A DNA stretch of 64,000 nt from Elusimicrobia bacterium UBA5214 (GTDB taxonomy: Bacteria > Elusimicrobiota > UBA5214), in NCBI GenBank assembly GCA_002412545.1, contig DHVG01000002.1:130095-194094 (forward strand), in the 5' to 3' direction. The position numbers were made by a program, and so were the translations under genes. The notes beneath the pieces are model-generated. The model worked only from the letters and a program-made list of their open reading frames with translations, searched no databases and was not told the DNA's origin. Of this stretch, positions 8,690 to 64,000 are shown in pieces; the first letter of the stretch is position 1, and every line of letters starts with the position of its first letter.

Positions 8690-10318
<1,629 letters not shown>

Positions 10319-13576: not shown

Positions 13577-14275
13577 TTGCAAATGATTAGTGATAATCTA
13601 AAAAAAGTACAAGAAAAAATAAATTTTACTTGTCAGAAAATTGGACGTAATCCAGAGGGAATAATTTTAGTTGCGGTAACAAAAAATGTGCCGGTAGAAA
13701 AAATTAAAGAAGTAATTTTTTTAGATGTAATAAACATTGGTGAAAACCGTGTGCAGGAAGCGCTCAAGAAGTATAGCGAATTAGCCATTAGCCATCAGCC
13801 ATCAGCTATCAGCCAAGTTAAATGGCATCTGGTTGGACATTTGCAAAAGAATAAAGTAAAATATGCCTTGAAAATATTTGACCTGATTCACTCAGTTGAC
13901 GATTTTGAGTTAGCCGAAGAAATTGATAAACAGGCAAAAAAAATTGGTAAAATCCAGGATTGTCTAATTGAAATAAAAGTTTCACCGGAAGTGACTAAAT
14001 ACGGTTGTCCACCCGAACCGGAAGAAGTTAAAAAGTTAATTGAGCGAATTAGCGAATTAGCGAATATTCGTATTCGTGGTCTAATGGCAATGGCACCGTT
14101 TTTTGAAAAATCCGAAGAGACTCGTCCCTATTTCCGTCAAGCATTTGAATGCTACTCGTTACTTGCTACTCGCTACTCGCTTACTTACTTATCAATGGGT
14201 ATGTCTAATGATTTTACTATTGCTTTAGAAGAAGGTGCAAATATGTTGCGTATTGGCACAGCTATATTTAAGTAA
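13577..14275 (+). CDS. yggS: YggS-family PLP homeostasis protein (alanine racemase N-terminal fold)
   Basis: ILVAVTKNVPVEKI..., GENRVQE and MGMSNDF.IA..EGAN.LRIGTAIF match. It lies upstream of proC, as in many bacteria. Two in-frame tandem-repeat insertions (13781-13815, 14151-14192). Confidence 0.8.
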   Translation: MQMISDNLKKVQEKINFTCQKIGRNPEGIILVAVTKNVPVEKIKEVIFLDVINIGENRVQEALKKYSELAISHQPSAISQVKWHLVGHLQKNKVKYALKIFDLIHSVDDFELAEEIDKQAKKIGKIQDCLIEIKVSPEVTKYGCPPEPEEVKKLIERISELANIRIRGLMAMAPFFEKSEETRPYFRQAFECYSLLATRYSLTYLSMGMSNDFTIALEEGANMLRIGTAIFK

Positions 14276-17197: not shown

Positions 17198-18319
17198 ATG
17201 AAAATTGATGATTTATTGCGTTTGATGGTTTCAAACCGTGCTTCAGATTTGCATTTGAAAGCCGACACTCGTCCTTTATTGAGGATAGACGGAGAACTGA
17301 TTCCCGAGGATAAATTACCTGAATTTTCCAGTGCAGAAATCTGGGAACTGGTTTGCCAGATGATTGGCGAAGAGCAAAAAGATAAATTCACTCAGGAAAA
17401 AGAATTAGATTTTGCCTATAATCTATCCGGTTTAGCAAGATTTCGTGTAAACACCTATCTACAAAGAGGACAAATTGGTGTTTCAATAAGGGCGATTCCC
17501 TGGGATATTCCTACCTTAGATAAATTGGGATTTCCACCAGTGATTAAGGAGTTAGCTCTTAAACCGAGAGGTTTGGTCTTGGTCACCGGTCCGACGGGAA
17601 GCGGAAAATCAACAACTCTCGCGGCAATCATCAATTATATCAATGTTAATCGGCGTTGTCAGATAATTACTATTGAAGACCCGATTGAGTTTGTGCATAA
17701 AAATAAATTGAGTAATATTGACCAGCGCGAGTTAGGTAGTGACACTCTCTCCTTTGCTAATGCTTTGAAACATGTCCTCCGACAAGACCCGGATGTAATT
17801 TTAGTTGGTGAAATGCGCGACTTGGAAACAATCGCTTTAGCGATTACTGCTGCGGAAACCGGGCATCTAGTTTTTTCTACTTTGCATACTACGGGTGCGG
17901 CAGCAACCATTGACCGGATTATTGATGTTTTCCCACCAACTCAACAATCTCAGGTAAGGTTGCAAATTGCTACACTCTTGGAGGGGGTAATCTCTCAGAT
18001 TCTTTTACCCTGTGCGGATAGTAAAGGAAGAGTTGCTGCTTTAGAGATTATGATTTCTACTCCGGCGATTCGCAATCTTATCCGGGAGAATAAAGTTTTT
18101 CAGATTTCTTCGGTGATGCAAACCGGTGTTTCTTCAGGAATGCAGACACTTGACCTTGCTTTGAAGAAACTATGTGAAGAAAAACTGATTACTTACGAAG
18201 AAGCATTAACTAAGTGCAGCGAGCCGGAACAGTTTCAAAAAATGCACTCTGCGGGTAAATTCAGAGAGACCAAATTTAGTTCCCCAGCACCAATTTCTGG
18301 CAATGTCGTTCCTGCATAA
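17198..18319 (+). CDS. pilT: Type IV pilus retraction ATPase PilT
   Basis: Walker A GPTGSGKST, ITIEDPIEF, the Asp box and GMQT..L are PilT/PilU family motifs. Confidence 0.85.
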   Translation: MKIDDLLRLMVSNRASDLHLKADTRPLLRIDGELIPEDKLPEFSSAEIWELVCQMIGEEQKDKFTQEKELDFAYNLSGLARFRVNTYLQRGQIGVSIRAIPWDIPTLDKLGFPPVIKELALKPRGLVLVTGPTGSGKSTTLAAIINYINVNRRCQIITIEDPIEFVHKNKLSNIDQRELGSDTLSFANALKHVLRQDPDVILVGEMRDLETIALAITAAETGHLVFSTLHTTGAAATIDRIIDVFPPTQQSQVRLQIATLLEGVISQILLPCADSKGRVAALEIMISTPAIRNLIRENKVFQISSVMQTGVSSGMQTLDLALKKLCEEKLITYEEALTKCSEPEQFQKMHSAGKFRETKFSSPAPISGNVVPA

Positions 18320-22997: not shown

Positions 22998-24710
22998 TTA
23001 CATTTTTTCCGGTGCAGAAACACCGATTAAGTCCAACCCGGTTCGGATAATTGTTCTTACTGCTTCTACTAAACTTAGCCGGGCTAAAGTCAAATTCCTA
23101 TCTTCGGAAATTACCCGATATTTTTCGTAATAACGGTGGAACAAATTAGCCAACTCCAAGAGATAGACCGCTAAATTGTGCGGACTTAAATTTTCTGCAC
23201 AAGTTACCAGAATATCCGGGAAAAAAGAAAGTTTTTTTATTAAGTCAAGTTCTGATTTTTCTTTCAATAGTTGATAGTTGATAGTTAATAGTTGATAGTT
23301 GATTCCTTCTTTTTCTGCCTGACGGAAGATACTTACTGCACGCGTATGTGCGTATTGGATATAGTAGACCGGATTTTCCGGGGATTGTTTCTTTGCCAAG
23401 TCAAGGTCAAATTGTAATTGTGCTTCCGGTGAACGGGTAAGAAAGAAATAACGACAGGCATCTTTTCCTACCTCATCCAGTAATTGTCGCAGAGTAACAA
23501 ATTCACCTGCCCGGGTAGACATTGCTACCGGTTGTCCTTCACGGATAAGACTTACCAACTGGTAAAGAATAATCTGTAACTGCTCCGGTTTGTAACCGAG
23601 GGCTTTTATTCCGGTTTTCATCCGGGCAATGTATCCGTGGTGGTCAGCTCCCCAGAGGTTGATTAGGCGGTCAAATTTTCGTTCCAATTTATCCCGGTGG
23701 TAGGCAAGGTCACCAGCTAAATAAGTTGGACGGCCGTCAGCACGAATCAGAACCCGGTCTTTCTCATCGTTCCCTAAGGTAGATTTGAACCATAAAGCAT
23801 TGTCTTTTTCGTAGGCATATCCCTTCTCTTTCAGTTGAGAAATTGTCTCTTCCACTTTTTTCTTTTGGTAAAGGTCGGACTCGGTGGACCAAATATCAAA
23901 TTTAATACTAAAATCTTCCAAATCTTTTTTGATGTCTTCAAGGTTTTCTTCCATAGCGATTTTGGAAAAATAACTTTCTGGTTTCTTTTCTATATCGGCT
24001 GGAGTAAGAACTCCTGCTCTTTCTTGACGGGCTATCTTTGTAGCCATTTCTATAATATCCTTTATATACTCCCCACGGTATGCAGCATTATTTAACCATT
24101 CTTCTTCTTCCGGTGTTAATTTCTTCTTAAATATGAATTCTTTTATTCTTAATTTTACCGTTTTACCTAAGTTTTCAATCTGGTTGCCGATATCATTGAT
24201 ATAATACTCCCTTTTTACTTCCCAACCGAGAAAAGAAAAAATTCTGGCTAAAGAATCACCGATTGCTGCACCTCTGCCGTGTCCGACATGGAGCGGACCG
24301 GTAGGATTTGCCGAGACAAATTCAAAAAGTATTTTTTCTCTTTTACCTAAGTTTGTTTTTCCATAATTTTTTCCTTGTCCTAAAATTGTTTTTAATTCTT
24401 GATAAACTCTTTCTGGAGCAAGAGAAAAATTGAGAAAAACCGGGGGCATAAATTCGACTTTAACGAACGGAGAAGAGGGAGTGATAAGTGAAGGGATAAT
24501 TTTATTGGTAATCTCCATAATCTCCACGGCTGGTTTATCTATCTCCTGACTAATAATTGAAACAATATTACATGACCCATCAGCAGAAATGTGTGCAGGT
24601 GGAATTTCTACCGTAGGTTTTGGTAGTTTTCTATTCTCAGGAATAATTTTTTCTTTTTTTAGTTGTTCAATCAGCTGGTCAATAAAAGTATAAATTTCTT
24701 CTTTAATCAT
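22998..24710 (-). CDS. argS: Arginine--tRNA ligase
   Basis: Class I HIGH motif (PTGPLHVGHGRG), the anticodon-binding DALK domain and a C-terminal ...VSAPEKM. It contains an in-frame TAGTTGA tandem repeat (23266-23303). Confidence 0.95.
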   Translation of the reverse strand: MIKEEIYTFIDQLIEQLKKEKIIPENRKLPKPTVEIPPAHISADGSCNIVSIISQEIDKPAVEIMEITNKIIPSLITPSSPFVKVEFMPPVFLNFSLAPERVYQELKTILGQGKNYGKTNLGKREKILFEFVSANPTGPLHVGHGRGAAIGDSLARIFSFLGWEVKREYYINDIGNQIENLGKTVKLRIKEFIFKKKLTPEEEEWLNNAAYRGEYIKDIIEMATKIARQERAGVLTPADIEKKPESYFSKIAMEENLEDIKKDLEDFSIKFDIWSTESDLYQKKKVEETISQLKEKGYAYEKDNALWFKSTLGNDEKDRVLIRADGRPTYLAGDLAYHRDKLERKFDRLINLWGADHHGYIARMKTGIKALGYKPEQLQIILYQLVSLIREGQPVAMSTRAGEFVTLRQLLDEVGKDACRYFFLTRSPEAQLQFDLDLAKKQSPENPVYYIQYAHTRAVSIFRQAEKEGINYQLLTINYQLLKEKSELDLIKKLSFFPDILVTCAENLSPHNLAVYLLELANLFHRYYEKYRVISEDRNLTLARLSLVEAVRTIIRTGLDLIGVSAPEKM

Positions 24711-35729: not shown

Positions 35730-38700
35730 TTAAATTTTACTATTTTCAAGAAGATTTAGCAAGTATTTTGTTAAAAAAAATATTGTTCTTTCCTGGGGGA
35801 AATTATGCAGGTTTAAATGTAGGAATTTTTCTTGGAGGAAAAAAACTTTCCCGCGATAATTTTCGGTAAATCTTTTTATTTTCTCTCGGTCAATATTCGC
35901 TTCAGGAAAGAAACTTATTTCCAATCCGCCACGGAGGGATTTTTTACTTTTGATTTCTTTAATCATCAGTTTCTTTGCTAAAATGCGTAACTCGGCTAAA
36001 GAGAAAAGGTTTTCGGTTGGTTCGGGTATTTTACCGAAACGGTCAAGGAGTTCATCTTTCATCTCTTTTAATTCTTTCGTTGAAGACACCGAAAGAATGC
36101 GTTTATAAAAGATAATTCTTATTGAAGAAACCGGGATATAGTTTTCCGGTAAATGCGCTTCCAGAGGAAAATCAAATAGCGGTTCTTTTTCTTTCGATAC
36201 AGTTTCGCCTCTAAGTTTTTTGACTTCTTCTTCTAAGAGGCGGCAGTAAAGGTCATAACCGAGTTCACCAATGAAACCGTGCTGTTGCGGACCGAGGACA
36301 TTCCCAGCACCACGGATTTCTAAATCTCTTAAAGCAAGACGCATTCCCGAACCTAAAGAAGTAAATTCGGTTAACGCCTGCAGCCGTTTTAACGCACTTT
36401 CGGTAAGTTGCGTGTCACGATTATAAAAAAGGTAACAATATGCCTTCTGGTCGCCTCTACCGATGCGTCCGCGTAGTTGATAAAGTTGAGCTAAACCAAA
36501 TTCTTCCGCATTTTCTACAATTAAAGTATTAACCCGGGGCAAGTCCAAACCGGACTCAATGATACTTGTAGAAACAAGTACCGCATATTCACCGGTCAAA
36601 AATTTATGCATTGTTTTTTCCAGTTCCCGGGCGGACATTTGCCCATGGGCTAAACCAAATTTTATCTCCGGGAGAAAATTCTTCAGCCGGTTGATTACGG
36701 TTAGAATCGTCTCAATCCGGTTATGGACATAAAATACCTGTCCCCCACGGTTAAGTTCCGAAAGAACCGCCTTCTTAATTATTCCATCATTGTGAATAGA
36801 GATGCAGGTTTCAATTGGTAACCGTCCTTCCGGTGGTGTTTCAATTACCGAAACTTCACGGAGTCCACTTAAAGTCATAGATAATGTCCGGGGTATCGGT
36901 GTTGCGGAAAGAGTAAGTGTATCTACAGAAAAACGCAATTTTTTTAATTTTTCTTTTGCACCTACACCAAAACGATGTTCTTCGTCAATCACTACTAAAC
37001 CTAAATCCTTAAATCCAATATCTTTCTGCAAGAGACGATGTGTGCCGATAATGATATCAATTAACCCATTTTTTAAATCGGAAAGAATTTTTTCTTGTTC
37101 TCTTTTTGTCCGGAAACGGGAAAGCATTTCAATATTTACCGGGTATTCTTTGAACCGTTCAGTAAAAGTGCGGTAATGTTGTTCAGCAAGAATTGTTGTC
37201 GGGACGAGCAGGGCTACCTGTTTACCAGCAAGAGCAACTTTTAATCCTGCACGCATCGCTACTTCAGTTTTACCATAACCGACATCACCAATCACTACCC
37301 GGTCCATCGGTTTGGAAGAGATTAAATCAGTTTTCACTTCTTCAATTGCTTTTGCCTGGTCAGGTGTTTCTTCGTAAGGGAAACTGGCCGCAAATTCTTT
37401 TTCAATATAGGAGTCGGGAGGGAAAGAATAAGCGGGTAAAATTTGACGCTGGGCATAAACCTGGAGAAGTTCACGAGCAAAATTATAGAGTGATTCTTTT
37501 ATTTTTTGTTTAAGTCGTTCCCAGGAAATACCATCAAGGGAATAAATTCTTGGACGATGTCCTTGCGGACCGATATATTTCTGGACTAAACGGAAATCAG
37601 TAATTGGCACATAAAGTTTGTCACCGCCTTTATATTCAAGAGAAAGGAAGTCAGCATATTTATTCTCAATGAGGAGATGTCTTAATCCACGGTAGATACC
37701 GATACCATACTGCTCATGAACGATGTAGTCACTGGGTTGGATTTCACTCAGATGTTCAAGGATGCCTCCACTGCGGAATTTTGGTAAACGGTAATGAATT
37801 TTATAGCGGGCAAAAATATCGTTACCGGTAATAATAACTAATTTCATTTCGGGCAAAAGAAAACCATTTACTAAAGGACCAATAAAAATGGGTAAACTTA
37901 TTTCCGGTTTTTTTTCTTCTAAAAGGGCAGACAACCTTTCTTCTTCCTGTCGGTTTTGTGCATAAAGATAAATTTTATATTTTTCTTTAATCCAAGTTTC
38001 CAGTTCTTCTAAAAAAAGAGTAAATTTACCGTTAAAACTTGGTAAATCTTGTGCGCCAAAATTAAACGTTTCGTGAGCAGGCAAAAGAACATTTTCTACT
38101 TGCTTAAAATCGGAAAATTCATTTGACTTCACTGTTTCTTTTACATCAATATCCCAGAAAATTAAGGTATTTTTGGGAAAATACTCGGCAAACCCTGAAC
38201 CATTACGGTTCAGGGCAAGTGGAGTTTGTTTTTCTATGGAAGCAGGAATAATTTTTGCTTCTTGAATATTTTCTTTTGAACGCTGGGTAGTGACATCAAA
38301 AAGACGTATTTCTTCAATTTTATTTTCAAAAAAAATAATCCGCAAGGGTAAAACAAAATTTGCTGCCCAGAGGTCAACAATTTCGCCGCGGACACTATAT
38401 TCACCGCTTTGTTCAACGAAATCTATCCGTTCATATCCGGCAGAAGTTAAATAATTGACGAATTCATCACGACTGATTTCTTCTTCAAGTTTAATTTCCC
38501 GACAAAATTTGATGAATTTATCTTTTTTCGGGATAGTTTTTCCCAGAATTTGAGCAGAAGTAACCAGAATTGAGACCTTATTTTCTAAAATTTCATTCAG
38601 ACCGGCAATCTGTGCCTGATGGACTTTTTCGGGATATAAATATATCTTTTTAGTTAACTTAAAAAATATTTTTAATGCTTCCAAATCGTCAGTAAGTTCT

Positions 38701-38873
38701 TCACTTTCTTCCTCAGTTTTTGTTACGGCAACTATCGGACAATCAAGTCTTTCGGCTAAACCAAGCAGAAAAAATGCTTTACTCCCACCGGCAAGTCCGC
38801 TTACCTGCAGATGTCGCCGGGTAGTGATTTTTCTAATTAGAACCTCAAAAATAGGTAATTCCATTTTTATCAT
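35730..38873 (-). CDS. mfd: Transcription-repair coupling factor
   Basis: UvrB-homology N-domain, helicase motifs (GDVGYGKTEVA, DEEHRFGV, TLSATPIPRTL, QLRGRIGR) and a C-terminal TRCF domain. Length 1047 aa. Confidence 0.92.
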   Translation of the reverse strand: MIKMELPIFEVLIRKITTRRHLQVSGLAGGSKAFFLLGLAERLDCPIVAVTKTEEESEELTDDLEALKIFFKLTKKIYLYPEKVHQAQIAGLNEILENKVSILVTSAQILGKTIPKKDKFIKFCREIKLEEEISRDEFVNYLTSAGYERIDFVEQSGEYSVRGEIVDLWAANFVLPLRIIFFENKIEEIRLFDVTTQRSKENIQEAKIIPASIEKQTPLALNRNGSGFAEYFPKNTLIFWDIDVKETVKSNEFSDFKQVENVLLPAHETFNFGAQDLPSFNGKFTLFLEELETWIKEKYKIYLYAQNRQEEERLSALLEEKKPEISLPIFIGPLVNGFLLPEMKLVIITGNDIFARYKIHYRLPKFRSGGILEHLSEIQPSDYIVHEQYGIGIYRGLRHLLIENKYADFLSLEYKGGDKLYVPITDFRLVQKYIGPQGHRPRIYSLDGISWERLKQKIKESLYNFARELLQVYAQRQILPAYSFPPDSYIEKEFAASFPYEETPDQAKAIEEVKTDLISSKPMDRVVIGDVGYGKTEVAMRAGLKVALAGKQVALLVPTTILAEQHYRTFTERFKEYPVNIEMLSRFRTKREQEKILSDLKNGLIDIIIGTHRLLQKDIGFKDLGLVVIDEEHRFGVGAKEKLKKLRFSVDTLTLSATPIPRTLSMTLSGLREVSVIETPPEGRLPIETCISIHNDGIIKKAVLSELNRGGQVFYVHNRIETILTVINRLKNFLPEIKFGLAHGQMSARELEKTMHKFLTGEYAVLVSTSIIESGLDLPRVNTLIVENAEEFGLAQLYQLRGRIGRGDQKAYCYLFYNRDTQLTESALKRLQALTEFTSLGSGMRLALRDLEIRGAGNVLGPQQHGFIGELGYDLYCRLLEEEVKKLRGETVSKEKEPLFDFPLEAHLPENYIPVSSIRIIFYKRILSVSSTKELKEMKDELLDRFGKIPEPTENLFSLAELRILAKKLMIKEIKSKKSLRGGLEISFFPEANIDREKIKRFTENYRGKVFFLQEKFLHLNLHNFPQERTIFFLTKYLLNLLENSKI

Positions 38874-39036
38874 TGTTTCCTATAAAAACAAGTATAGTAA
38901 AACAATGACTATTTTAGCAAATTTTATTCTCCTTCGCCCCGATAGGTCATGGTCTACCGAGAATACCCCCCCGATGTAACATTGGGACAGAAATGAAGGC
39001 GAGGAGAAGGAGAATTCCGCTCTGATACCCCGCCCC

Positions 39037-39068
39037 TTAGGGCGGGGAGCTTCATTTTTTGGAGTTGT
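39037..39068 (+). terminator. Plus-oriented intrinsic-terminator-like hairpin in the mfd-pilB intergenic region
   Basis: ccccgccc-ctta-gggcgggg followed by agcttcatttttt. The flanking genes are on the minus strand. Confidence 0.4.
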
Positions 39069-45932: not shown

Positions 45933-47507
45933 CTACTCCGCTAAGAGTTTACTGATTCTCTTGCCTAATTCTTCAATCTCAAACGGCTTGGAAAGATAAT
46001 CGTTGGCGCCAGCAGTGAATATCTTTTCCCGATTTTCCGGTGAATCATAACCGGTAATGGCTAAAATTTTTATTCCTTTAGTTTTTTCGTTACTGCGGAT
46101 ATTCCGGCAGACTTGAAAACCGTCAATTCCCGGAAGCAATAGGTCAAGAATCATTAGGTCTGGGTTAAACTCAAGAACTGCCTGCCCAGCACGGAAGCCA
46201 TCAGTAGCCGAGGTAAACTGGTATTTTTCCGGGAATTTTTTCAAAAAAGCAATTGCCAGGTTAATAATTGCCCGGTCATCATCCACAACGAGTACTTTTT
46301 TCTTTTCCTTTTCAGTGAATTCTTCAATAATAGGGAGTTTAATGGTGAAAGTTGTTCCTTTACCTTTTTCACTCTCAAAATCAATTGTTCCATTATGTTT
46401 CTGCATTATTTCATAACATAAACTTAGACCTAAACCAGTTCCTTTACCCGGTTCTTTGGTTGTGAAAAATGGTTCAAAAATTTTATGTTTGACTTCTTCC
46501 GGGATACCTGCCCCGGTATCTTCTACACGAATTTCCACGAATTTCCCCTCACCTTCCACCTTTGCTAAAGCTACGGTGGACAGGTTTTCCTCTCCCTCAA
46601 GGGGAGAGGGGATGGTGAGGGTGGTGGTTATGGTTATTGTTCCACCATCGGGCATTACATCAAGAGCATTGTTCGCCAAATTCATAATTACCTGTTGGAT
46701 TTGGTTACGGTTGGCAAAAATCATTGGTAAATCAGGGGCATATTTTTTGGTTATTACAACATTGCGCATTTTTGCTTGATGTTCAACCAGTAACAAGGTT
46801 TCTTCAACTGCTTGGTTTATTTCCATTGATGTTTTCCCGGTTCCGCTTGAACGCGAGAAAACCAAAAGATTTTGCACTAAGGTCTTACAGCGCAGCGCTT
46901 CTCTTTCAATTGAGGACAAAGGCAGATAAAGAGGATTATTCTGGTCAATTCGTTTCATTACACTCTGGGCAAAACCTAAGATTACACCCATCGGATTATT
47001 TATTTCGTGAGCGATACCACCAGCTAATTGACCGATTGCCGCCATCTTGTCCGATTGAATAAGTTTAGCTTGCGTTTCTTTCAACTGTTTATTTGCTTCC
47101 TCAACATCTTCTAAGATATTGAGTATTGCTTTTCGGTCGTTGCTTAATTCAGCGATTTCTTTTTCTCTTTCTTCAATCATTGTCCAGATTAGTTTTGCCG
47201 AGGCACCTTTTAAAAGTTCTACACCGGGAGGTAACATTTTACTTAACGATTTTTCAACTTCGGGGTTACCGGTTACCTCAATAACTGTATTGAGACCACT
47301 AATTTTTAAGAAGGGGGAGAAATCTTTCCCGGTCGGTAGTCCCAATTCTTTTGCTAATTTGATTCCCGGTGCGTCATCATTAGTGTCCACAATGCCGCAA
47401 ATATTTAACCACGGTTCTTTATGAAATAACTCAATTAATGCCTTTCCACCTTTCCCGGCGCCGATAATTAAAACATTTATTTTTTTGTCCATTTGCATTA
47501 TTCTCAC
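45933..47507 (-). CDS. Soluble hybrid histidine kinase: Rex-like NAD(H)/CoA-binding Rossmann domain, HisKA, HATPase, REC
   Basis: N-terminal [19 protein letters not shown]...ICGIVDTN...[11 protein letters not shown] is a Rex C-domain-like GxGxxG fold. H-box [10 protein letters not shown]-terminal receiver. The HATPase loop carries a GC-rich palindromic insertion (46546-46628). Confidence 0.7.
46546..46628. repeat. GC-rich compound palindromic element inserted in frame in the HATPase loop of a histidine kinase
   Basis: cccctcaccttccacc ... cctctccctcaaggggagagg ... ggggatggtgagggtggtgg. The core is the exact reverse complement of 54944-54964. Confidence 0.85.
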
Positions 47508-49229: not shown

Positions 49230-50066
49230 TTAGATGGTTAACCGGGTAGGTTTTTTCTGGTTAAGTTTTATTTTTCCGTTAGCAAGATTTTTTATGGTAG
49301 AAATGATTAAAGGGAACTCTCTTTTTAAACCTTCAGCACGGATTTTTTTGAAAAGTGGCTCATTTTCACCTTCCTCTTCAATAATCCGCTCTAAAGTTTT
49401 AGGAGTAAACATCTTCACAATTTCTTTCCCCTTCCTTTTATCCTTCCCCACTTGTGGGGGAGGGAGAGGATGGGGGGGTGTTTTCAGTTTCGCCTCCAAC
49501 TGTCTCCGCAAACGGTCAAATTCTTTACCCACAATTGGATAGGTGCAATAACTGATTGGAGGACCAGCGTCAAGTTCGGGAGTGACTAAATGCATCATTA
49601 CCCCCGATTCTTTTTCTTTATTTCTAATCAGTTGCCAGATTACTTCCTGCCAGGTGCCTTTCGGTCCACCCGGTTTTGCTGGGTGTAAGTTTATCATTTT
49701 ATACCTTCGGCAAATTTCAGCATTGACAATTAACATATATCCAGCAAGAACAATCAGGTCAACTGGATATTTTTCAATGAGTTTGATTACTTGATGATGA
49801 TATTCGGTACGCCATTTTCCCAGGTTTTCTTTCCGTAAATCCGGTTTAAATTTTAATGCAGAAAAAGTTACCAAAGGAAATTCGTATTTCTTTACTAAAG
49901 CAAAAAATTTATCGCTTTCCGGATTTTCACCTTCTTCACGGTTAGAAAAAACGAAACTAATTTCCGTATTTAGTATTTCGTTTTTTGTAATTTGTTTAAC
50001 CACCGTATTTAATAAATCCCTTGCTGCTTTATCTCTTCCGGTTGAAAACCAACCAATTTTATACAT
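49230..50066 (-). CDS. purN: Phosphoribosylglycinamide formyltransferase-like (PurN family) with a C-terminal extension
   Basis: The formyl-transferase N-domain has IGWFSTGRDKAARDLL and VDLIVLAGYMLIV. The gene ends the pur/pyr operon and contains a GC-rich in-frame palindrome (49441-49490). Confidence 0.6.
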   Translation of the reverse strand: MYKIGWFSTGRDKAARDLLNTVVKQITKNEILNTEISFVFSNREEGENPESDKFFALVKKYEFPLVTFSALKFKPDLRKENLGKWRTEYHHQVIKLIEKYPVDLIVLAGYMLIVNAEICRRYKMINLHPAKPGGPKGTWQEVIWQLIRNKEKESGVMMHLVTPELDAGPPISYCTYPIVGKEFDRLRRQLEAKLKTPPHPLPPPQVGKDKRKGKEIVKMFTPKTLERIIEEEGENEPLFKKIRAEGLKREFPLIISTIKNLANGKIKLNQKKPTRLTI

Positions 50067-51908: not shown

Positions 51909-52883
51909 TTAAATAAGTTTTACTTCTTGTTTACCGGAAACGATTTTACCAATAATAACCGAGTTTTTCAGTAACTTATGAACTCGTGAACTTATCAACC
52001 CTGAACCAAAACGGTTCAGGGTAAACTTATCAACTATTATCACCATGCCAACTCCCATATTAAATATACGGAACATTTCTTTTTCCGGAATTTTACCTTT
52101 ATCCTGAATGATGCGGAAAATTTCCGGTACTTGCCAACTTTTTTTATCAATTACCGCTTGACAATTCTTGGGTAAAATACGAGGTATATTGTCGTAGAAT
52201 CCACCACCGGTGATGTTGACGATTCCGCTGATGGCTGATGGCTGACGGCGGATGGCGGATAATATCTCTTTGACATAAATCTTGGTAGGGGTGAGGAGTT
52301 CTTCACCGTATTTAATTAGTTCTTTTTTGGAGAAAATTTTGCGCACTAAGGAGAAACCGTTTGAATGTAAGCCACTTGAAGGTAGACCGATAATTAAATC
52401 ACCGGGTTTAATTTTTCTACCATCAATAACTTTATTTTTTTCTACCAAACCGACGGTAAAACCAGCTAAATCGTATTCACCTTCATGATAAAATCCGGGC
52501 ATTTCAGCAGTTTCACCACCAAGAAGGATACAATCTGCCTGACAGCATCCTTCGTTTATACCTTTGATAATTTGTTCGGCAACTTTTAAATCCAATTTAC
52601 TACAAGCGAAATAATCAAGAAAAAATAAAGGTTTTGCTCCACAACAGATTACATCGTTGACATTCATTGCTACTAAATCAACCCCGACGGTATTGTGTTT
52701 ATTTAAGAGAAAAGCGAGTTTAAGTTTTGTGCCGACACCGTCACTGGAAGCAGAAAGATAATGTTTCTTATCTAATGGATATAAACCGCTAAATCCGCCG
52801 ATTACCGGAGCAATTTTTTTAATCCTTTTTACGAAAAGGTTACCTTTGTCAATGTCTACACCCGCTTGTTTGTAAGTTACCAT
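51909..52883 (-). CDS. purM: Phosphoribosylformylglycinamidine cyclo-ligase (AIR synthetase)
   Basis: VTYKQAGVDIDKGN, DGVGTKL and LVAMNVNDV are PurM signatures. In-frame AGCCATC repeat at 52226-52262. Confidence 0.9.
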   Translation of the reverse strand: MVTYKQAGVDIDKGNLFVKRIKKIAPVIGGFSGLYPLDKKHYLSASSDGVGTKLKLAFLLNKHNTVGVDLVAMNVNDVICCGAKPLFFLDYFACSKLDLKVAEQIIKGINEGCCQADCILLGGETAEMPGFYHEGEYDLAGFTVGLVEKNKVIDGRKIKPGDLIIGLPSSGLHSNGFSLVRKIFSKKELIKYGEELLTPTKIYVKEILSAIRRQPSAISGIVNITGGGFYDNIPRILPKNCQAVIDKKSWQVPEIFRIIQDKGKIPEKEMFRIFNMGVGMVIIVDKFTLNRFGSGLISSRVHKLLKNSVIIGKIVSGKQEVKLI

Positions 52884-54900: not shown

Positions 54901-54928
54901 ATCTGTTTGATAAGATTTATGATATTTT

Positions 54929-54980
54929 CACCCTCTCCTTAATCCTCTCCCCTTGAGGGAGAGGGACGGGGTGAGGGGGA
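54929..54980. repeat. GC-rich compound palindromic element with core cctctccccttgagggagagg
   Basis: The 21-bp core is the exact reverse complement of the core at 46589-46609. Flanking C-run/G-run arms are also inverted. Confidence 0.85.
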
Positions 54981-56472: not shown

Positions 56473-57501
56473 TCATTCGTGTATCATACTGCCGGTTAGT
56501 TTACTCAAGGTAATTTTTTGTATTTTAAGATATTGTTTTAGACCGATAAGTATTTTCTGTGGTAAAAATGGGTCACGGAAAAGAGCGCTACCTAAAGCAA
56601 TTGCTTTTGCACCGACAAGAAAAAATTCTATTGCATCTTGAGGACTATTTATTCCACCCATACCGATAATTGGTATTTTAACCTTTTGGTAAGTTTCGTA
56701 AATCATCCGTAAAACAATTGGTTTAATTGCTGGACCAGATAAACCACCAAAGACTGGTGAGTGGGAAGTGGTGAGTGGTGAGTGGGGAAAGGCAAGGGCG
56801 GAGAAAGTGTTGACTAAAGAGAGAGCATCGGCACCGGCAGATTCGGCAGTTTTGGCAATTACAGTTATATCCGTAACATTAGGGGTAAGTTTAGCAATTA
56901 CCGGTAATTTGGTTACCTTTTTTACTCTCTTTACCACCTCGTAAGTCAGTTCTGCATCCTGCGAGATAAGCGAAATTACTCCTTGCTCGGAGTTTATCCC
57001 CCCATTCTTGCTTTCGCCTGCCCCCGCGTCTCCCGACGCAAGTCGGGGCGGCGGGCAAGAAAGCAGGGGGGGACTCTTTGCTCTTGGCTCTTTGCTACGA
57101 ACATTCGGACAAGAAAGATTTAATTCCAGAGCAGATATACCTTTTTCTTTGTCTAATCTACGAGAAATCTCAGCGAATTCTTCTGCGTTCTCCGCAGCAA
57201 TACTTACGACTATTGGTATTTTAAGTTTTCTTTTTAAAAAAGGTAATTTTTCTTTTAGAAAAATTTCCAAACCCGGATTTTCCAGACCAATTGAATTAAT
57301 CATTCCTTCCATTGTTTCTACAATTCTCGGCGACGGATTACCCGCACGCGGTTTAAGAGTAACTGTCTTTGTAGTTATCGCCCCGAAAACATTCAGGTTA
57401 ATTAACTTACTGTATTCTTCACCAAAACCAATAATTCCACTGGCAACAAGGAGTGGATTTTTTAGTTTTATTCTGGCAATTTCAGTTGATAAATTAACCA
57501 T
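56473..57501 (-). CDS. pyrD: Dihydroorotate dehydrogenase catalytic subunit (class 1B)
   Basis: NPLL.ASG, ...ELN.SCPN..., GG and other TIM-barrel FMN motifs. It carries a ~35-aa low-complexity insertion (AKSPPLLSCPPPRLASGDAGAGESKNGGINSEQG) encoded by a GC-rich palindrome at 56997-57098, plus a heptamer repeat at 56745-56790. Confidence 0.85.
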   Translation of the reverse strand: MVNLSTEIARIKLKNPLLVASGIIGFGEEYSKLINLNVFGAITTKTVTLKPRAGNPSPRIVETMEGMINSIGLENPGLEIFLKEKLPFLKRKLKIPIVVSIAAENAEEFAEISRRLDKEKGISALELNLSCPNVRSKEPRAKSPPLLSCPPPRLASGDAGAGESKNGGINSEQGVISLISQDAELTYEVVKRVKKVTKLPVIAKLTPNVTDITVIAKTAESAGADALSLVNTFSALAFPHSPLTTSHSPVFGGLSGPAIKPIVLRMIYETYQKVKIPIIGMGGINSPQDAIEFFLVGAKAIALGSALFRDPFLPQKILIGLKQYLKIQKITLSKLTGSMIHE

Positions 57502-57547: not shown

Positions 57548-59254
57548 TCATTTCAAAATCGTGATTCCATATTTATCTATTAATATTTTTGTAGTTTTGT
57601 CTATTAATAAATCTTTTTCTACGCTTTTGGCGGAAATCAATTGCTCAGGTAGTTTATCTATTTTCACCCAGTTTCCTTCTACAAATTTAGCAATTTGTTC
57701 AATTTTATGCGGATAAAGTATACCCTGATGCCAAGGTTCCCAATTTGTTTTGTAACCTTGCGCATAGAGTATACCATCACTCAAATAAATATTTTCTACA
57801 TAAAAATTAGGCGAAATCGTTCGTAGAGCCAAAGTTGAAACATTTATTTCATCAATTTCGGAATACTTCTCACCTTCCATTTCAGGGTAGATTCTCAAAA
57901 TATAAATTAAATTTTCTGTTCCAAGTACATAGTTCCTGTCAGGTGCGGAGTAGAGTCTGTAGTTATTTGAACCACTTATATGTTTGATAGTTAAGCTATC
58001 TAAGTCTAATATATCCAACCCACGATTCGTTTGCATAAGCACTTTTTTTCCAAGAGAAGTAATTAGTATTTCATACCTCATGGGTTCTTGTACAAATTGG
58101 GCAATTTCCATTATCCATCTCTGTTCATCAAGGGAAAATATTTTATTTCTAAGCACAAAATTCTTATGCATACCGAAATAAGGAATTTTCTCCATCATAT
58201 CTAATTGTGGAATTTTACTTAATTTATTTACAATTTTTTCCATTTTTTCTTCAGAGTAATCTTCAAAATATTTTTTTAGGTCTGAATCTTGATGGTATCG
58301 TTTGTAGCCATCTTGGTATCCTCTTAGAAATCTTGCTAAGTCAAATCTTGGGTAAGATTTAATCATAGAAATATCGTTGAGCAACCTGTCAATCGTTTCT
58401 TCTGTCTGAATTAGTCGGAATATCTTCCATTTTCCGTTATTCTTGTCGTATTCCGCTATTCTCGTATCATAATAATTTTGGAAACCAACAAGAACCCAAG
58501 CATATTTAGGAGATACAACAAAACAGTCTATAGTGGCATATGGACTTTGATCCCCCATTAATTCGTCATGATGATAAGTCTTCCATTCCCCAGAGATTTT
58601 ATTGTAGCAAAGCAATACACCCTTTGACCTCCTCTCAGCAAATGGTACAATCCATACGAAAGTAGTTTCAATAACTGCATAATTATTACCCGGTGGTTCA
58701 TCTATTCCTAATTTAGTATATATATGATTCAAGTTCTCCCACAGACCGATTTTAGTGTCATAAATATCGATACGATGGAAACTTGATATCCAGATGGTTT
58801 CTGTTTTCTGGTCATATACAAACTTTAAATTTTCATTTGCTCCGAATTCCGTGCTTTGACTTACCTTAAAATCATCTACAAATTGTTTGCTGGTTAAATC
58901 AAAAATCTTAATTCCATCGCGCCAAGTTCCCACCCATAATTTGTTTTCTATTTTGGCAAGTGAGGAAATTCCACTCTCTGATTTTGGCAGTCGGTATACC
59001 AAAAGGCCGTTGTCCGAAGGATTAAACTCACCTAAACCGCTTGTAAGAGGTAGGTACCATCTTCCTTCGAATTCTACTGCCGCGGCACCATTAATTGCGG
59101 TAGTATTAGGCAACCAAATTGTTTTTCCATCGGTTTGGTAAAGAGGAACAAATTGAGGCGGGAAATCTTCACCAAAACAAATACTACAACAAATAAATAA
59201 CATATTTAACCAGAATACTATTTTTGTTAGTTTTAACATTTTTTCAAATTTCAT
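57548..59254 (-). CDS. Secreted 568-aa hypothetical protein (possible beta-propeller repeats) embedded between pyrK and pyrD
   Basis: Signal peptide MKFEKMLKLTKIVFWLNMLFICCSICFG. Repeated W.GTW.DGI.IFD / IWISSFHRIDIYD-like blades. Its start overlaps the pyrK stop (ATGA). Confidence 0.5.
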   Translation of the reverse strand: MKFEKMLKLTKIVFWLNMLFICCSICFGEDFPPQFVPLYQTDGKTIWLPNTTAINGAAAVEFEGRWYLPLTSGLGEFNPSDNGLLVYRLPKSESGISSLAKIENKLWVGTWRDGIKIFDLTSKQFVDDFKVSQSTEFGANENLKFVYDQKTETIWISSFHRIDIYDTKIGLWENLNHIYTKLGIDEPPGNNYAVIETTFVWIVPFAERRSKGVLLCYNKISGEWKTYHHDELMGDQSPYATIDCFVVSPKYAWVLVGFQNYYDTRIAEYDKNNGKWKIFRLIQTEETIDRLLNDISMIKSYPRFDLARFLRGYQDGYKRYHQDSDLKKYFEDYSEEKMEKIVNKLSKIPQLDMMEKIPYFGMHKNFVLRNKIFSLDEQRWIMEIAQFVQEPMRYEILITSLGKKVLMQTNRGLDILDLDSLTIKHISGSNNYRLYSAPDRNYVLGTENLIYILRIYPEMEGEKYSEIDEINVSTLALRTISPNFYVENIYLSDGILYAQGYKTNWEPWHQGILYPHKIEQIAKFVEGNWVKIDKLPEQLISAKSVEKDLLIDKTTKILIDKYGITILK

Positions 59255-60105
59255 TCCCAGATTATTTGATTTGCTTCAAAAACTGGTCCATCTTTACAGA
59301 CGGTCTTGTAGACGAAATGCTGGTGGCTAGTGGTTAGTGATTGATGGCTGGTTTTCACAACACATCCTCGGCAAGCACCAAGACCACAAGCCATCATTGC
59401 TTCTAAAGATACCTGATAGGGAATTTTGTATTTTTGTGTAATTTTAGCAATTTCTTTTAGCATTGCATAGGGACCACAAGCATATATATTAGTTATGAGT
59501 GATGAGTTATGAGTTATGAGTGAATTTCTGAACAGGTCAGTGACAAGACCTTTATAACCAAGGGAACCGTCTTCAGTAGCGAGTTTAACCTGGCAACCAA
59601 GTTTTTTGAAATTATCAATGCAGAGGAGGTCGTTTTTTGTTTTTGCACCAAGGAAAACAGTTAAAGGTGTAAGGTGTGAAGTGTAAAGTGTAATTAACTT
59701 CTGAGCAAGGAAGAGAAGTGAGGCGACACCGGTGCCACCGGCGATGAGGATGGGTGATTGGGTGATTGGGTGATTGAGTGATTGAGTAAAACCGTTACCG
59801 AGGGGACCAAGCACATCTAAAGTATTACCTTTTTTCTTTCGGGATAAGAGTTCAGTTCCTTTACCGACAACTTTGTAGATTATTTCAACCTGATTTTTTT
59901 TGACTTTCGCGATACTGAAAGGACGACGAAGGTAAGTACCTTCTCCACAATAAATATGGACAAATTGTCCCGGTTGAGCAATTTGGGCAATCTGTGGGGC
60001 AGAAAAAATTAAACGAAAATAGCCGGATGAGATTTCTTTCTGGTCAGTGATTAAGGATTGTAAATGATAAACTTTATTCTGAATAGACAATTTTGCCGTT
60101 AACAA
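59251..60105 (-). CDS. pyrK: Dihydroorotate dehydrogenase electron-transfer subunit
   Basis: FAD/NAD-binding FNR-like fold (RPFSIA, GGTGVA) and a C-terminal 2Fe-2S Cys cluster (CGLGACRGC). It holds four separate in-frame tandem-repeat insertions. Confidence 0.8.
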   Translation of the reverse strand: MLTAKLSIQNKVYHLQSLITDQKEISSGYFRLIFSAPQIAQIAQPGQFVHIYCGEGTYLRRPFSIAKVKKNQVEIIYKVVGKGTELLSRKKKGNTLDVLGPLGNGFTQSLNHPITQSPILIAGGTGVASLLFLAQKLITLYTSHLTPLTVFLGAKTKNDLLCIDNFKKLGCQVKLATEDGSLGYKGLVTDLFRNSLITHNSSLITNIYACGPYAMLKEIAKITQKYKIPYQVSLEAMMACGLGACRGCVVKTSHQSLTTSHQHFVYKTVCKDGPVFEANQIIWE

Positions 60106-61354
60106 TAGTATTGACTACCTTACCCGTTACCTGCCAGCCAAGAAAAGGTGAATTTTTACTTTTGGAAACAAAATTTTCTACTTTCCATTTCTTGTTCAAG
60201 TCAACAATGGTAATATCGGCTGGAGAACCAGGTTTCAGTTGTCCGGAGTTGAGTTTCAAAACTTGTGCCGGATTAATCGTGACTTTGGCGATTGCTTCCA
60301 TTAACGAGATAATTTTCTTATTTACTAATTCAGTAACCACCAAGGAAAGTAAAGTTTCCAAACCGATAATCCCAAACGGTGCTAAATCGTATTCTTTATT
60401 TTTTTCTTCTTCAGTATGTGGTGCATGGTCAGTAGCGATACAGTCAATTGTTCCGTCTGTTAATCCCTTTTTGATTGCTTCCACATCTTCTTTCGTTCTT
60501 AAAGGAGGATTAACTTTTGTATTTGTGTCAAATTGAGAAACTTTCTCTTCAGTAAGAGTGAAATATTGTGGTGCAGTTTCACAGGTAACCCGGATACCTC
60601 GTTTTTTTGCTTGCCGGATTAGTTCTACCGAGCCAGCAGTAGAAATATGAGCAATATGCAAATGCCCACTGGTAAGTTCAGCTAAGATTATATCCCTTGC
60701 TACCATTGCTTCTTCGGCTTCTTTTGGTATCCCGTGGAGACCTAAAATTGTAGAATAGTATCCTTCATTCATTGCTCCATCTTTAGATAAATTTTTGTCT
60801 TCACAATGGGAAATTACTGGCAAGTCAAACATTTTTGCATATTCTAATGCCCGACGCATAATCAGACTATTCATTACTGTTTCACCGTCATCAGAAATTG
60901 CTACGATGCCGGCTTTTTTCAATTCACCAATTTCGGATAATTCTTCACCTAACGAACCTTTAGTGATTGCACCAATTGGTAAAACATTGACCACACCTTC
61001 ATTTTTTGCTTTGAGCAGAATAAATTCAACCGTGGTTTGGTCGTCAATTACTGGATGAGTATTTGGCATACAACAGACGGTAGTAATACCACCTTTTGCT
61101 GCTGCCCGTGTCCCAGTAGCAATCGTCTCTTCTTCTTCATGTCCGGGTTCACGCAAATGGGTATGCATATCAATAAGTCCGGGAATAACAATTTTACCTT
61201 TAGCATCAATGACTTTTATGGCTGATGGCTGTTGGCTGATGGCTGATGGCTTACCGATAGAAACAATTTTGCTATCTTCAACTAAAATATCGGTGATTCT
61301 GTTCGTTTTACTTGCCGGGTCAATTACTCTACCACTTTTAACGAGCAACTTCAT
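60074..61354 (-). CDS. pyrC: Dihydroorotase
   Basis: Amidohydrolase metal ligands DMHTHLREPG, ...HxH and D...H. In-frame AGCCATC repeat at 61213-61245. Confidence 0.85.
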   Translation of the reverse strand: MKLLVKSGRVIDPASKTNRITDILVEDSKIVSIGKPSAISQQPSAIKVIDAKGKIVIPGLIDMHTHLREPGHEEEETIATGTRAAAKGGITTVCCMPNTHPVIDDQTTVEFILLKAKNEGVVNVLPIGAITKGSLGEELSEIGELKKAGIVAISDDGETVMNSLIMRRALEYAKMFDLPVISHCEDKNLSKDGAMNEGYYSTILGLHGIPKEAEEAMVARDIILAELTSGHLHIAHISTAGSVELIRQAKKRGIRVTCETAPQYFTLTEEKVSQFDTNTKVNPPLRTKEDVEAIKKGLTDGTIDCIATDHAPHTEEEKNKEYDLAPFGIIGLETLLSLVVTELVNKKIISLMEAIAKVTINPAQVLKLNSGQLKPGSPADITIVDLNKKWKVENFVSKSKNSPFLGWQVTGKVVNTIVNGKIVYSE

Positions 61355-63395: not shown

Positions 63396-64000
63396 CTAAC
63401 TCCCTAACTTCCTAACTGCTTTTATCCCGATATCTCTTCGGTAATGCATCTTCTCAAATTTTATTTTTTCTACCGCGCTATATGTATTCTTTATCGCTTT
63501 TTCTATATTTTCACCTAAACCAGTTACACCGAGCACTCTCCCGCCATTGGTCACTAAAGTTGACCGTTCACCGTTCACCGTTAACCGTTTAGTGCCAGCA
63601 TGGAAAACAGTTATATTTTGCATTTTTTTCGTTTCTTCAAGACCAAATATTTCTTTACCTTTTTCGTAATCACCCGGATAGCCACCAGAAGCGAGGACGA
63701 CACAAACTGACGAACAAGCAGACTGGTGATTAGTGGTTAGTGATTGGTAATCGGACAAATTTTTGTCAATTGTGGCTAAACAGAGGTCAACTAAATCTTC
63801 ATTAAGCAAAGGTAAAGTTACCTGTGCTTCCGGGTCACCGAAACGACAATTGAACTCTAAAACTTTTGGTCCTTCTTCAGTAATCATTAAACCAAAATAG
63901 ATTATCCCCCGATAGTCCAGTTTTTCTGCATTTATCCCTTTTATAAAGTTAGCAAATATTTCTTTATCTATTTTTTTTCTAATTTTTTCGTTAATAATCG
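63396..64000 (-). CDS. purD: Phosphoribosylamine--glycine ligase (partial; the N-terminus lies beyond the window end)
   Basis: GIIYFGLMITEEGPKVLEFNCRFGDPE ATP-grasp block. The frame is open past 63887 to the window edge. Two in-frame heptamer repeats (63545-63575, 63715-63745). Confidence 0.85.
   Translation of the reverse strand, partial: IINEKIRKKIDKEIFANFIKGINAEKLDYRGIIYFGLMITEEGPKVLEFNCRFGDPEAQVTLPLLNEDLVDLCLATIDKNLSDYQSLTTNHQSACSSVCVVLASGGYPGDYEKGKEIFGLEETKKMQNITVFHAGTKRLTVNGERSTLVTNGGRVLGVTGLGENIEKAIKNTYSAVEKIKFEKMHYRRDIGIKAVRKLGS

Follow-up and report, generated by a model that had tools for sequence, protein, structure and literature searches.

The subject of this report is a GC-rich palindrome of 75 nt that lies in frame in pyrD, the gene of a dihydroorotate dehydrogenase (DHODH), in a 64-kb stretch of DNA (the window) from contig DHVG01000002.1 of Elusimicrobia bacterium UBA5214. 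Its closest described counterparts are small repeats of several kinds. Rickettsia palindromic elements (RPEs) are about 100-150 bp long, share the AT-richness of their host and are not known outside Rickettsia, and they are reportedly inserted in frame in protein-coding genes, an observation credited to Ogata et al. in 2000. The small dispersed repeats (SDRs) of cyanobacteria, which Elhai et al. are said to have described in 2008, are reportedly tiny mobile palindromes that nest in each other and in genes; they have no known transposase, and the genomes that host them are rich in heptanucleotide tandem repeats. [quoted passage not shown] The GC clusters, double-hairpin elements and 'byps' of fungal mitochondria are GC-rich mobile hairpins, some of which are bypassed by the ribosome and not translated.

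Summaries of the RPEs are available (PMC10969869; PMC3733652). In repetitive extragenic palindromes (REPs) one end of the stem-loop carries an unpaired tag, either GTAG or, in the REPs of Di Nocera et al. 2013, CGTC; both types have been reported within coding regions, and the CGTC-tagged REPs, too, are without an identified dedicated transposase (PMC3733652). Two REPs in an inverted doublet make a REPIN, the unit of the REPIN/RAYT systems (PMC3116915, which also cites Elhai et al. 2008). In REP/RAYT systems the repeats flank the gene of the RAYT, a Y1 transposase. MITEs of Coxiella burnetii insert in frame (PMC5896051; review PMC10969869), and heptamer repeats have also been reported in Beggiatoaceae (PMC4853749).

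We conclude that the pyrD insert is very probably a copy of a non-autonomous, hairpin-forming family of mobile DNA. Its kind is a known one, that of the REP-, RPE- and SDR-like selfish palindromes; the family is new and apparently undescribed so far, as no paper with the element sequence was found in the searchable literature.

The palindrome and its host gene

An earlier note on this DNA had pointed to a nested GC-rich palindrome in pyrD, and this is borne out: arms of 30 nt (56997-57026 and 57044-57073, with 70% ungapped complementarity in a repeat search) enclose a perfect inner hairpin (coordinates of all features are given in Table 1). The consensus orientation of the element is the minus strand of the window. 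As single-stranded DNA the palindrome folds with -28.9 kcal/mol (z = -3.96 against dinucleotide shuffles), and its GC content is indeed far above that of its surroundings, at 72% against 37.6% for the window. The note had let the feature run from 56997 to 57098. Its start was one base too far out, and its end had taken in the tandem ctctttg units that the note had correctly seen behind the palindrome, which form a period-7 array according to Tandem Repeats Finder (TRF). The gain of about 35 aa that it ascribed to the palindrome holds for the protein, which is 35 aa longer at the insert site than its shortest close orthologue (P0006), but the palindrome itself codes for 25 of these residues (P144-G168); the other extra residues, SKEPRAKS and INSEQG, come from the heptanucleotide array and a 9-nt spacer. 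Stop triplets are lacking from the 75-nt composite in all six frames, which is only mildly notable, with 11% of composition-matched shuffles of the composite and 70% of those of its inner element being stop-free as well.

The host gene encodes a class 1B DHODH, as the earlier note had it. The open reading frame (ORF) matches PF01180 with E = 2.4e-76 and aligns to the L. lactis PyrDB (1EP1) with E = 5e-75 (HMMER alignment). PyrD C131 corresponds to residue 135 of the 1EP1 chain and lies in the SCPNV motif; we take this SCPN cysteine to be the catalytic base of class 1 DHODHs. The gene order is pyrC-pyrK-(ORF)-pyrD-pyrF-pyrE, and the PyrK-like ORF carries PF10418, which means that the PF01180 fold, the SCPN cysteine motif and the nearby PyrK-like gene that mark class 1B are all present. 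Two blocks of the alignment to 1EP1 (query 4-135 to chain 7-139, and query 181-326 to chain 147-292) leave between them 45 residues of PyrD (136-180) that correspond to 7 residues in 1EP1. The gap starts four residues past the SCPN motif, and the residues encoded by the palindrome are placed five residues beyond the catalytic cysteine loop. Mapping the insert on a PyrD structure had been proposed in the earlier note, and besides the break of the 1EP1 alignment at the insert we have an AlphaFold2 (AF2) model from a 120-sequence alignment, in which the barrel is confident (pTM 0.84) and pLDDT falls below 50 at residues 134-174. The extra residues are thus predicted to form a disordered excursion.

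The eleven closest PyrD proteins have 68-78% full-length identity, with invariant catalytic-motif columns in the clade alignment and with their differences concentrated in the loop after SCPNV. All of the orthologues P0002-P0011 are without the element and have other content in the same loop. The screen of relatives for an empty site that the earlier note had suggested gave the predicted outcome: the gene of P0006 (locus L005) reads ...GAGCGAAGAGTAATTTCG... without interruption at this position, and P0002 (locus L002) likewise has no palindrome. Both are therefore empty sites for the palindrome, with the heptamer array present in each. In the DNA of the relatives a heptanucleotide tandem array, (AGCMAAG)n, underlies the loop; it counts two units in L005/P0006 (AGGCAAG AGCGAAG AGTAATTTCG), four in L002/P0002 and about nine in L089/P0003, where the peptide has a period of 7 aa (EPRAKSK EQRAKSN ERG). 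The array is the older part and is common to P0002 and P0003. The order in the window is three heptamer units, the 75-nt palindrome, the 9-nt spacer, one further unit and AGTAATTTCG. That further unit pairs with 57073-57083 as an 11-nt imperfect direct repeat (GAGCAAAGAGT / GAGCAAGGAGT) around the element. We considered this repeat as a target-site duplication and rejected it, because the family shows no target duplications and the repeat is made of heptamers; it presumably represents two units of the host array.

This loop seems to have taken up other DNA as well. In L087/P0004 and L088/P0008 another GC palindrome (CTGCCCGACGACTGGCAGGCGGG) sits at the same place inside a smaller palindrome, TCCCGATTTATCGGGA, which is uninterrupted in L091/P0010, and this looks like an independent nested insertion. 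Between CPN and Q[DNSE] the clade has loops of 12-47 residues, and 66 more distant homologues have loops of 7-28. Many of the distant PyrD homologues (P0012-P0112, 47-57% identical, with few named members, all of them Omnitrophota) have 7-aa-periodic loop peptides such as KSHKSQVTSHK or RGQKTEDRGQRTE. These peptides are the signature of in-frame heptamer arrays, and the loop after CPN is a long-standing, recurrent repeat sink across lineages. A profile search of genome contigs with the PyrD clade alignment brought up neither the genome of the window nor close relatives; its best match was a sequence of about 50% identity, from Omnitrophota.

Two further observations concern this gene and its neighbours. 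PyrD residues of about 238-251 form a second variable segment, FPHSPLTTSHSPVF, which is encoded by TGGTGAG heptamers and takes the place of the conserved VDxxTRxPKLxxxT of outgroup DHODHs at equal length; it varies within the clade, and the AF2 pLDDT dips there. The gene between pyrK and pyrD is in the window a 568-aa ORF without a Pfam family and in L002 (2427-4796) a P-type ATPase, whereas in L005 pyrK directly adjoins pyrD.

A dispersed family of nested palindromes

The six-frame peptides of the palindrome were concatenated and searched against 5.8 billion proteins. Eight unrelated proteins carry the same segment of 24-26 residues, and they do so in three reading frames. The first frame is seen in two rubrerythrins (P0122 and P0126, ..LSCPPPRLASGDAGAGESKNGG..), a GT9 glycosyltransferase fragment (P0123), a PFOR fragment (P0125) and P0129, the second in P0124 and P0127 (PPSCFRLPPRLPTRVGAAGKKAGG), and the third in the glucosamine-6-phosphate deaminase NagB of a Phycisphaerae metagenome-assembled genome (MAG; P0128, MFB0524322.1). 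Since the same segment is read in three frames in unrelated proteins, the conserved entity is the DNA and not a protein module.

The DNA was followed in JGI metagenome contigs with the 24-mer CCCGACTYGCGTCGGGAGACGCGG, which matched at least 120 contigs. This length was adopted because the 16-mer of the inner hairpin is too short as a query: its 19 matches in viral contigs all have unrelated flanks. Among the matches listed, to which all counts of copies in this text refer, there are 124 copies in 118 distinct flanking contexts. The GC content of the host loci is 0.40-0.60 (mean 0.50), so that the window genome, with 37.6% GC, is more AT-rich than any of them. Conservation continues for 8 nt to the left and 7 nt to the right of the 24-mer, mostly at 94-100% per column except for the W position, and then collapses, which sets the boundaries of an inner element of 39 nt with the consensus CCCGCCGCCCCGACTCGCGTCGGGAGACGCGGGGGCWGG. 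A scan of 86 loci of relatives and Omnitrophota with 11-mers gave chance matches alone.

The inner element stands alone in unrelated flanks in about 70% of the contexts, and in about 22-25% it lies between CCCCCCTGCTTTCTTG and CGAAAGCAAGAAGGGGGG. The outer palindrome, of 34-36 nt, also exists empty (CCCCCCTGCTTTCTTG^CGAAAGCAAGAAGGGGGG), at L160:3200 (CCCCCCTGCTTTCTTGCGAAAGCAAGAAGGGGGG) and as variants in L168, L170, L193, L224 and L226. Filled and empty versions differ by exactly 39 nt, with the insertion at TTG^CGAAAG (a G^C step), and in L202 the inner element occupies the same step in reversed orientation relative to the outer one. The composite, 73-75 nt long, recurs in about 25 unrelated contexts, and the imperfect arms that characterise it recur with it. 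The copy in pyrD departs from the composite consensus of the metagenomes at three points (loop TTGC for TCGC, AAT for AAG, and one extra C). Most other copies have the loop GCGA on the plus strand; on the minus strand the loop is TCGC in 118 copies and TTGC in 6, and the TTGC copies include the two host loci with the lowest GC, L156 and L179. Copies number one or two per locus at irregular distances, mostly as singletons, and where two stand close together, as happens rarely (L202, L230), their orientation is direct. A nesting of three layers is seen in the second copy of L139 and in L217 and L222, where the 39-mer lies in the outer palindrome and this in CCCCCGCCGTTTTGCTTG...CTTCGCAAAAGCGAAGCAGCGGGGG.

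Target duplications of 3 nt or more are not seen among the copies, and the flanking repeats of inner-only copies match a shuffled control. The flank preference of these inner-only copies is symmetric, c-y-k-G/C-a-a (the slash marks the junction), which amounts to a TTG^CAA-like, roughly palindromic target (T-K-G^C-M-A). In an alignment of 24 composite copies (A4), 92% of cells are paired, and five pairs with 15 cells show compensatory change, the terminal pair 12-74 being CG in 11 copies, GC in 4, AU in 2 and UA in 1. The covariation score of A4 was reached by none of 500 shuffles and slid controls were lower; the raw alignment also has paired one-base deletions in the outer arms, TTTC to TTC together with GAAAG to GAAG. 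This covariation of the outer arms argues that the hairpin itself is maintained. As for gene residence, 58 of 112 assessable copies (52%) lie inside ORFs that are open for at least 50 codons on both sides, compared with 66% of random positions in the same loci, so gene interiors are only mildly avoided; by orientation the intragenic copies divide 31:27. We dropped a test for purifying selection from orthologous copies in diverged flanks, as there were too few pairs and the search conditions on identity. Heptamer arrays accompany 3 of the 124 elements against 14 of 2061 in the background, which is not a convincing association.

Set beside the described systems, the element behaves most like an RPE in that a selfish palindrome occurs in frame in many unrelated genes and is retained as a peptide segment. 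The descriptions of RPEs nevertheless set it apart, with its 39 nt (75 in the composite), its richness in GC, its nesting and hosts that are labelled as different phyla, and by analogy we would say that it works like an RPE without filing it as one. With REPs it shares a GC-rich imperfect palindrome of 20-40 nt, a 4-nt loop, the lack of a target duplication and a high copy number (at least 120 contigs). On the plus strand CGTC stands unpaired immediately 5' of its inner stem (GCGTCTCCCGAC...), which recalls the CGTC-tagged REPs. Here, however, CGTC lies within the 39-nt unit, where a further stem encloses it, instead of being terminal, and the stem is without the A/T first pairs of the CGTC families. 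About half of the copies are intragenic and not predominantly extragenic, and unlike REPINs they are singletons or direct doublets, the composite being two different palindromes of which one lies inside the other. Because the tag is internal, inverted doublets are lacking, half of the copies are intragenic and no RAYT was found (in a weak test, described below), we do not file it with the REP/RAYT members.

The remaining systems compare as follows. In its nesting, and in occurring together with heptamer arrays, the element resembles the SDRs, which differ from it in sequence and in hosts; the hosts here are Elusimicrobiota and Planctomycetota-type metagenome contigs. Like MITEs the element is non-autonomous, multicopy, residue-adding and bears inverted repeats, and its C6/G6-tipped outer arms, which covary, resemble terminal inverted repeats, but it makes no target duplication of 3 nt or more. 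The GC clusters and byps of fungal mitochondria also are GC-rich hairpins that invade AT-rich genomes including their coding regions, but they are organellar. A self-splicing intron or an intein is at odds with a length of only 75 nt, with a peptide free of intein motifs and with the search of Rfam, where the palindrome gave sub-threshold miRNA-like matches at most and no intron family. CRISPR repeats would form regularly spaced arrays, which the one or two copies per locus do not.

Origin and movement of the insert

We picture the events as follows. The basic unit is the 39-nt GC-rich imperfect palindrome, which inserts at a G^C step, whichever way round, and makes no target duplication of at least 3 nt; one favoured landing site is the centre of the second palindrome. 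The recurrence of the composite could mean that it spread as a unit or that the inner element entered the outer one repeatedly. A composite copy would have entered the heptanucleotide array that already occupied the hypervariable, insertion-tolerant loop after SCPNV, and the precise empty site in pyrD would be ...AGCAAAGAGT/.... The gene could stay open because the composite is 75 nt long and stop-free in any frame and the loop is disordered; PyrD now carries 25 extra residues rich in Pro, Gly, Ala and Ser, and is presumably still active. Movement would be due to a trans-acting enzyme that recognises the DNA hairpin or cruciform. Given the compositional contrast of a window genome that is more AT-rich than the listed host loci, we infer that the element may have reached it from GC-richer hosts.

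Several points weigh against this picture. The exact 24-mer search itself imposes part of the conservation seen in the inner element. As the junction bases are G and C, the junction is ambiguous (TT^G^C^G), and a duplication of 1-2 nt (GC) or a shared core may be involved. A tblastn search of 818 kb of flanks found no Y1 transposase near the copies, in what is a weak test with IS608 TnpA and E. coli RAYT as queries. No second copy of the element was found in the 64-kb window (16-mers, up to 3 mismatches), which leaves activity in this genome unsupported. The flanking direct repeats are 95 nt apart, and this is not a multiple of three, so that the frame could be kept only with further changes to the heptamer array and now depends on the number of its units too. 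With its nearest orthologue PyrD shares only 77% identity over the full length and 83% over aligned columns, and the orthologues compared include no population-level pair with and without the insertion in pyrD. Finally, the host taxonomy is based on MAG labels, Elusimicrobia for the window by way of its GroEL and Phycisphaerae for P0128; an NCBI 'Elusimicrobia bacterium' protein matches the window GroEL with 100% identity, and the next matches, at about 80%, are from Elusimicrobiota and Endomicrobiales.

A bolder proposal, which we regard as tentative and rather doubtful, is that the 39-nt unit stands for a mechanistically distinct class of ultra-small mobile DNA. Such a class would be near-invariant, would use a palindromic TTG^CAA-like target including the centres of other hairpins, would make no target duplication and show little avoidance of coding sequence, would occur under two phylum labels (Elusimicrobiota and Planctomycetota), and would be mobilised neither by a RAYT nor by a classical DDE transposase. 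Its mobiliser could be, for instance, a site-specific recombinase that works in trans, IS110-like or of another type, or else a pathway of repair or replication in the host that acts on cruciforms.

Explanations other than mobile DNA fare much worse. It is improbable that the insert is a selected functional module, either an mRNA structure that modulates the pyr operon or a loop extension that alters the function of PyrD/PyrK. Covarying hairpin arms, a position adjoining the catalytic loop, an inner loop of GNRA type on one strand, in the GCAA as in the GCGA variant, and a clade that always retains some extension at this loop are all what such a module could show. Covariation, however, is equally expected if mobility needs the hairpin, the closest orthologues manage without the palindrome, and disorder is predicted for the peptide. 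Unrelated genes contain this DNA, in three frames and in both orientations, and roughly half of the copies fall outside long ORFs, so that neither a single peptide nor a single sense of the transcript is conserved; the lack of an orientation bias relative to genes likewise argues against a role at the RNA level.

A de novo origin from local sequence, by template switching or fold-back replication together with slippage in a repeat-rich loop, has a still smaller chance. The site is a slippage-prone heptamer array, other lineages have different palindromes at the same loop, and the insert contains CTTTCTTGCCCG, which resembles the host's own CTTTCTTGTCCG 54 nt upstream as a 12-nt direct repeat, with one mismatch, to the LSCP codons. 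But CTTTCTTGCCCG is part of the consensus arm of the family, which makes the likeness to the host coincidental, and by our own rough estimate about 0.1-0.3 chance matches of this kind are expected in the neighbourhood. Dozens of unrelated contexts and genomes contain near-identical copies of the whole 75 nt, and the existence of this dispersed family effectively refutes a local origin of the insert.

Least credible is an artefact of assembly or binning in which a GC-rich repeat was misjoined into an AT-rich gene: repeats are a classic source of chimeric joins and the element is compositionally foreign, but pyrD is contiguous on both sides in one frame with unbroken homology to its orthologues, many independent assemblies show the element in frame in other genes, and the earlier note's check for a chimera is answered by a second JGI scaffold of the same population (L001) that agrees base for base through 17.5 kb, palindrome included, an N-gap at 49907 being the exception, so that with two assemblies in agreement the palindrome in pyrD is not an assembly artefact.

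Other repeats of the window and the meaning of the family

The earlier note had asked whether several GC-rich palindromes of the window belong to one family, and they do not. The one in the BadF fusion gene is related to the outer palindrome: it has 26 of 28 positions in common with CCCCCGCTGCTTCGGCTTTGCGAAGCAAA... of L228 and L135, with more matches in L200, L222 and L129, and outer palindromes of the L228 type co-occur with the element in metagenomes. It is enclosed by a further stem, CCTCCG...CGGAGG (6751-6810), and is located in a variable linker between domains, at which homologues can be shorter by up to about 21 aa. The palindrome of the purN-like gene, which lies within a 26-aa insert of the protein relative to the L002 orthologue, would be of another family; it shares only exact segments of 10-11 nt with a second palindrome family. 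Of the two window copies of that second family, the first is in the HATPase domain region of a histidine-kinase gene and the other is intergenic, and relatives have it too (L005:8945-8980 and L091:11-31). The intergenic inverted repeat listed in the note has no relative among the loci compared and no Rfam match. Its arms, TTCTCCTTCGCC ... GGCGAGGAGAA, are about 58 nt apart, and a perfect GC hairpin and a T-run follow it.

A third palindrome family was seen at two sites, and at its site in purM the L002 orthologue has a different GC palindrome. L002 has GC-rich palindrome-like in-frame inserts of its own in pyrE (7523-7563) and purM (10098-10172), which the window orthologues are without, and such inserts make up most indels between the orthologues of the window and L002. 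The window also holds 13 strict period-7 tandem arrays, 12 of them in ORFs (ArgRS, purM, pyrD, pyrK twice, pyrC, the BadF fusion and others), while codon-shuffled controls have none and other periods give 0-3 arrays; period 7 dominates likewise in 818 kb of element-bearing metagenome loci. A c-di-GMP-I riboswitch (RF01051, 59.8 bits, E = 3.6e-9) lies upstream of a gene for a T2SSE/PilT-like ATPase.

Table 1. Positions of the features discussed, in the window unless a locus is named.
Feature	Position	Strand	Basis or remark
pyrD, class 1B dihydroorotate dehydrogenase catalytic subunit, 342 aa, insertion host	56473-57501	-	PF01180, 1EP1, gene neighbourhood
Composite palindrome, probably mobile, 75 nt, PyrD P144-G168 (PPLLSCPPPRLASGDAGAGESKNGG)	56998-57072	-	consensus match; peptide in P0122-P0129
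Inner 39-nt element CCCGCCGCCCCGACTTGCGTCGGGAGACGCGGGGGCAGG	57017-57055	-	38/39 vs consensus; sole difference loop TTGC for TCGC
Perfect inner hairpin CCCGAC-GCAA-GTCGGG	57032-57047		plus-strand loop GNRA-type
Outer arm, plus CCCCCCATTCTTGCTTTCG, minus CGAAAGCAAGAATGGGGGG	56998-57016		18/19 vs empty outer element L160:3200
Outer arm, minus CCCCCCCTGCTTTCTTG	57056-57072		17/17 vs empty outer element
Heptanucleotide array AGCAAAG AGCCAAG AGCAAAG AGT, encodes SKEPRAKS	57073-57096	-	TRF period 7, 3.3 copies; not element
Extra heptamer unit GAGCAAGGAGT (56978-56988) and 9-nt spacer ATAAACTCC (56989-56997)	56978-56997	-	repeat search
Second variable segment of PyrD	56755-56790		TGGTGAG heptamers
568-aa ORF between pyrK and pyrD	57548-59254
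PyrK-like ORF	59251-60105		PF10418
PyrD genes of clade members compared for CTGCCCGACGACTGGCAGGCGGG/TCCCGATTTATCGGGA	L087:346-1296, L088:331-1296, L091:131-1093
Outer-type palindrome without inner element, in frame in BadF/DUF2229 fusion gene	6761-6787	+	26/28 vs CCCCCGCTGCTTCGGCTTTGCGAAGCAAA...
Palindrome in purN-like gene	49442-49480
Second palindrome family, CCTCTCCC(C)TYRAGGGRAGAGG then GGGGTGAGGG, also written CCTCTCCC..GGGAGAGG+GGGGTGAGGG	46589-46628, 54928-54979		histidine-kinase gene; intergenic
Third palindrome family AACCCTGAACCnnnnnGGTTCAGGG	38191-38215, 51997-52022		ORF 35730-38873; purM
Intergenic inverted repeat	38927-39008
Perfect GC hairpin CCCCGCCCCTTAGGGCGGGG	39028-39047		followed by T-run
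Period-7 arrays, examples	5763-5799, 13778-13815, 23264-23304, 52227-52260, 56760-56788, 59487-59524, 59664-59693, 61216-61254, 63558-63592
c-di-GMP-I riboswitch RF01051	16933-17067	+	59.8 bits
T2SSE/PilT-like ATPase gene	17198-18319

If the pyrD insert is a mobile palindrome, as we think very probable, foreign-looking low-complexity segments in proteins predicted from MAGs would find their explanation in mobile DNA and not in features of the enzyme or errors of assembly. This affects annotation, alignment and structure prediction, and in the example at hand the segment adjoins the active site of a pyrimidine enzyme that is essential. The 39-nt element, its outer partner and the insertion site are now precisely defined and can be searched for. 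How palindromes of such non-coding size are mobilised is unsolved for the CGTC REPs and the SDRs too, and could be approached by co-occurrence across MAGs. With its exact 39-nt unit, its G^C target in hairpins and its two host-phylum labels, this family would be a good handle on the movement of palindromes below 100 nt. At the level of the host, a single enzyme loop can act as a recurrent sink for both heptamer expansion and palindrome insertion.

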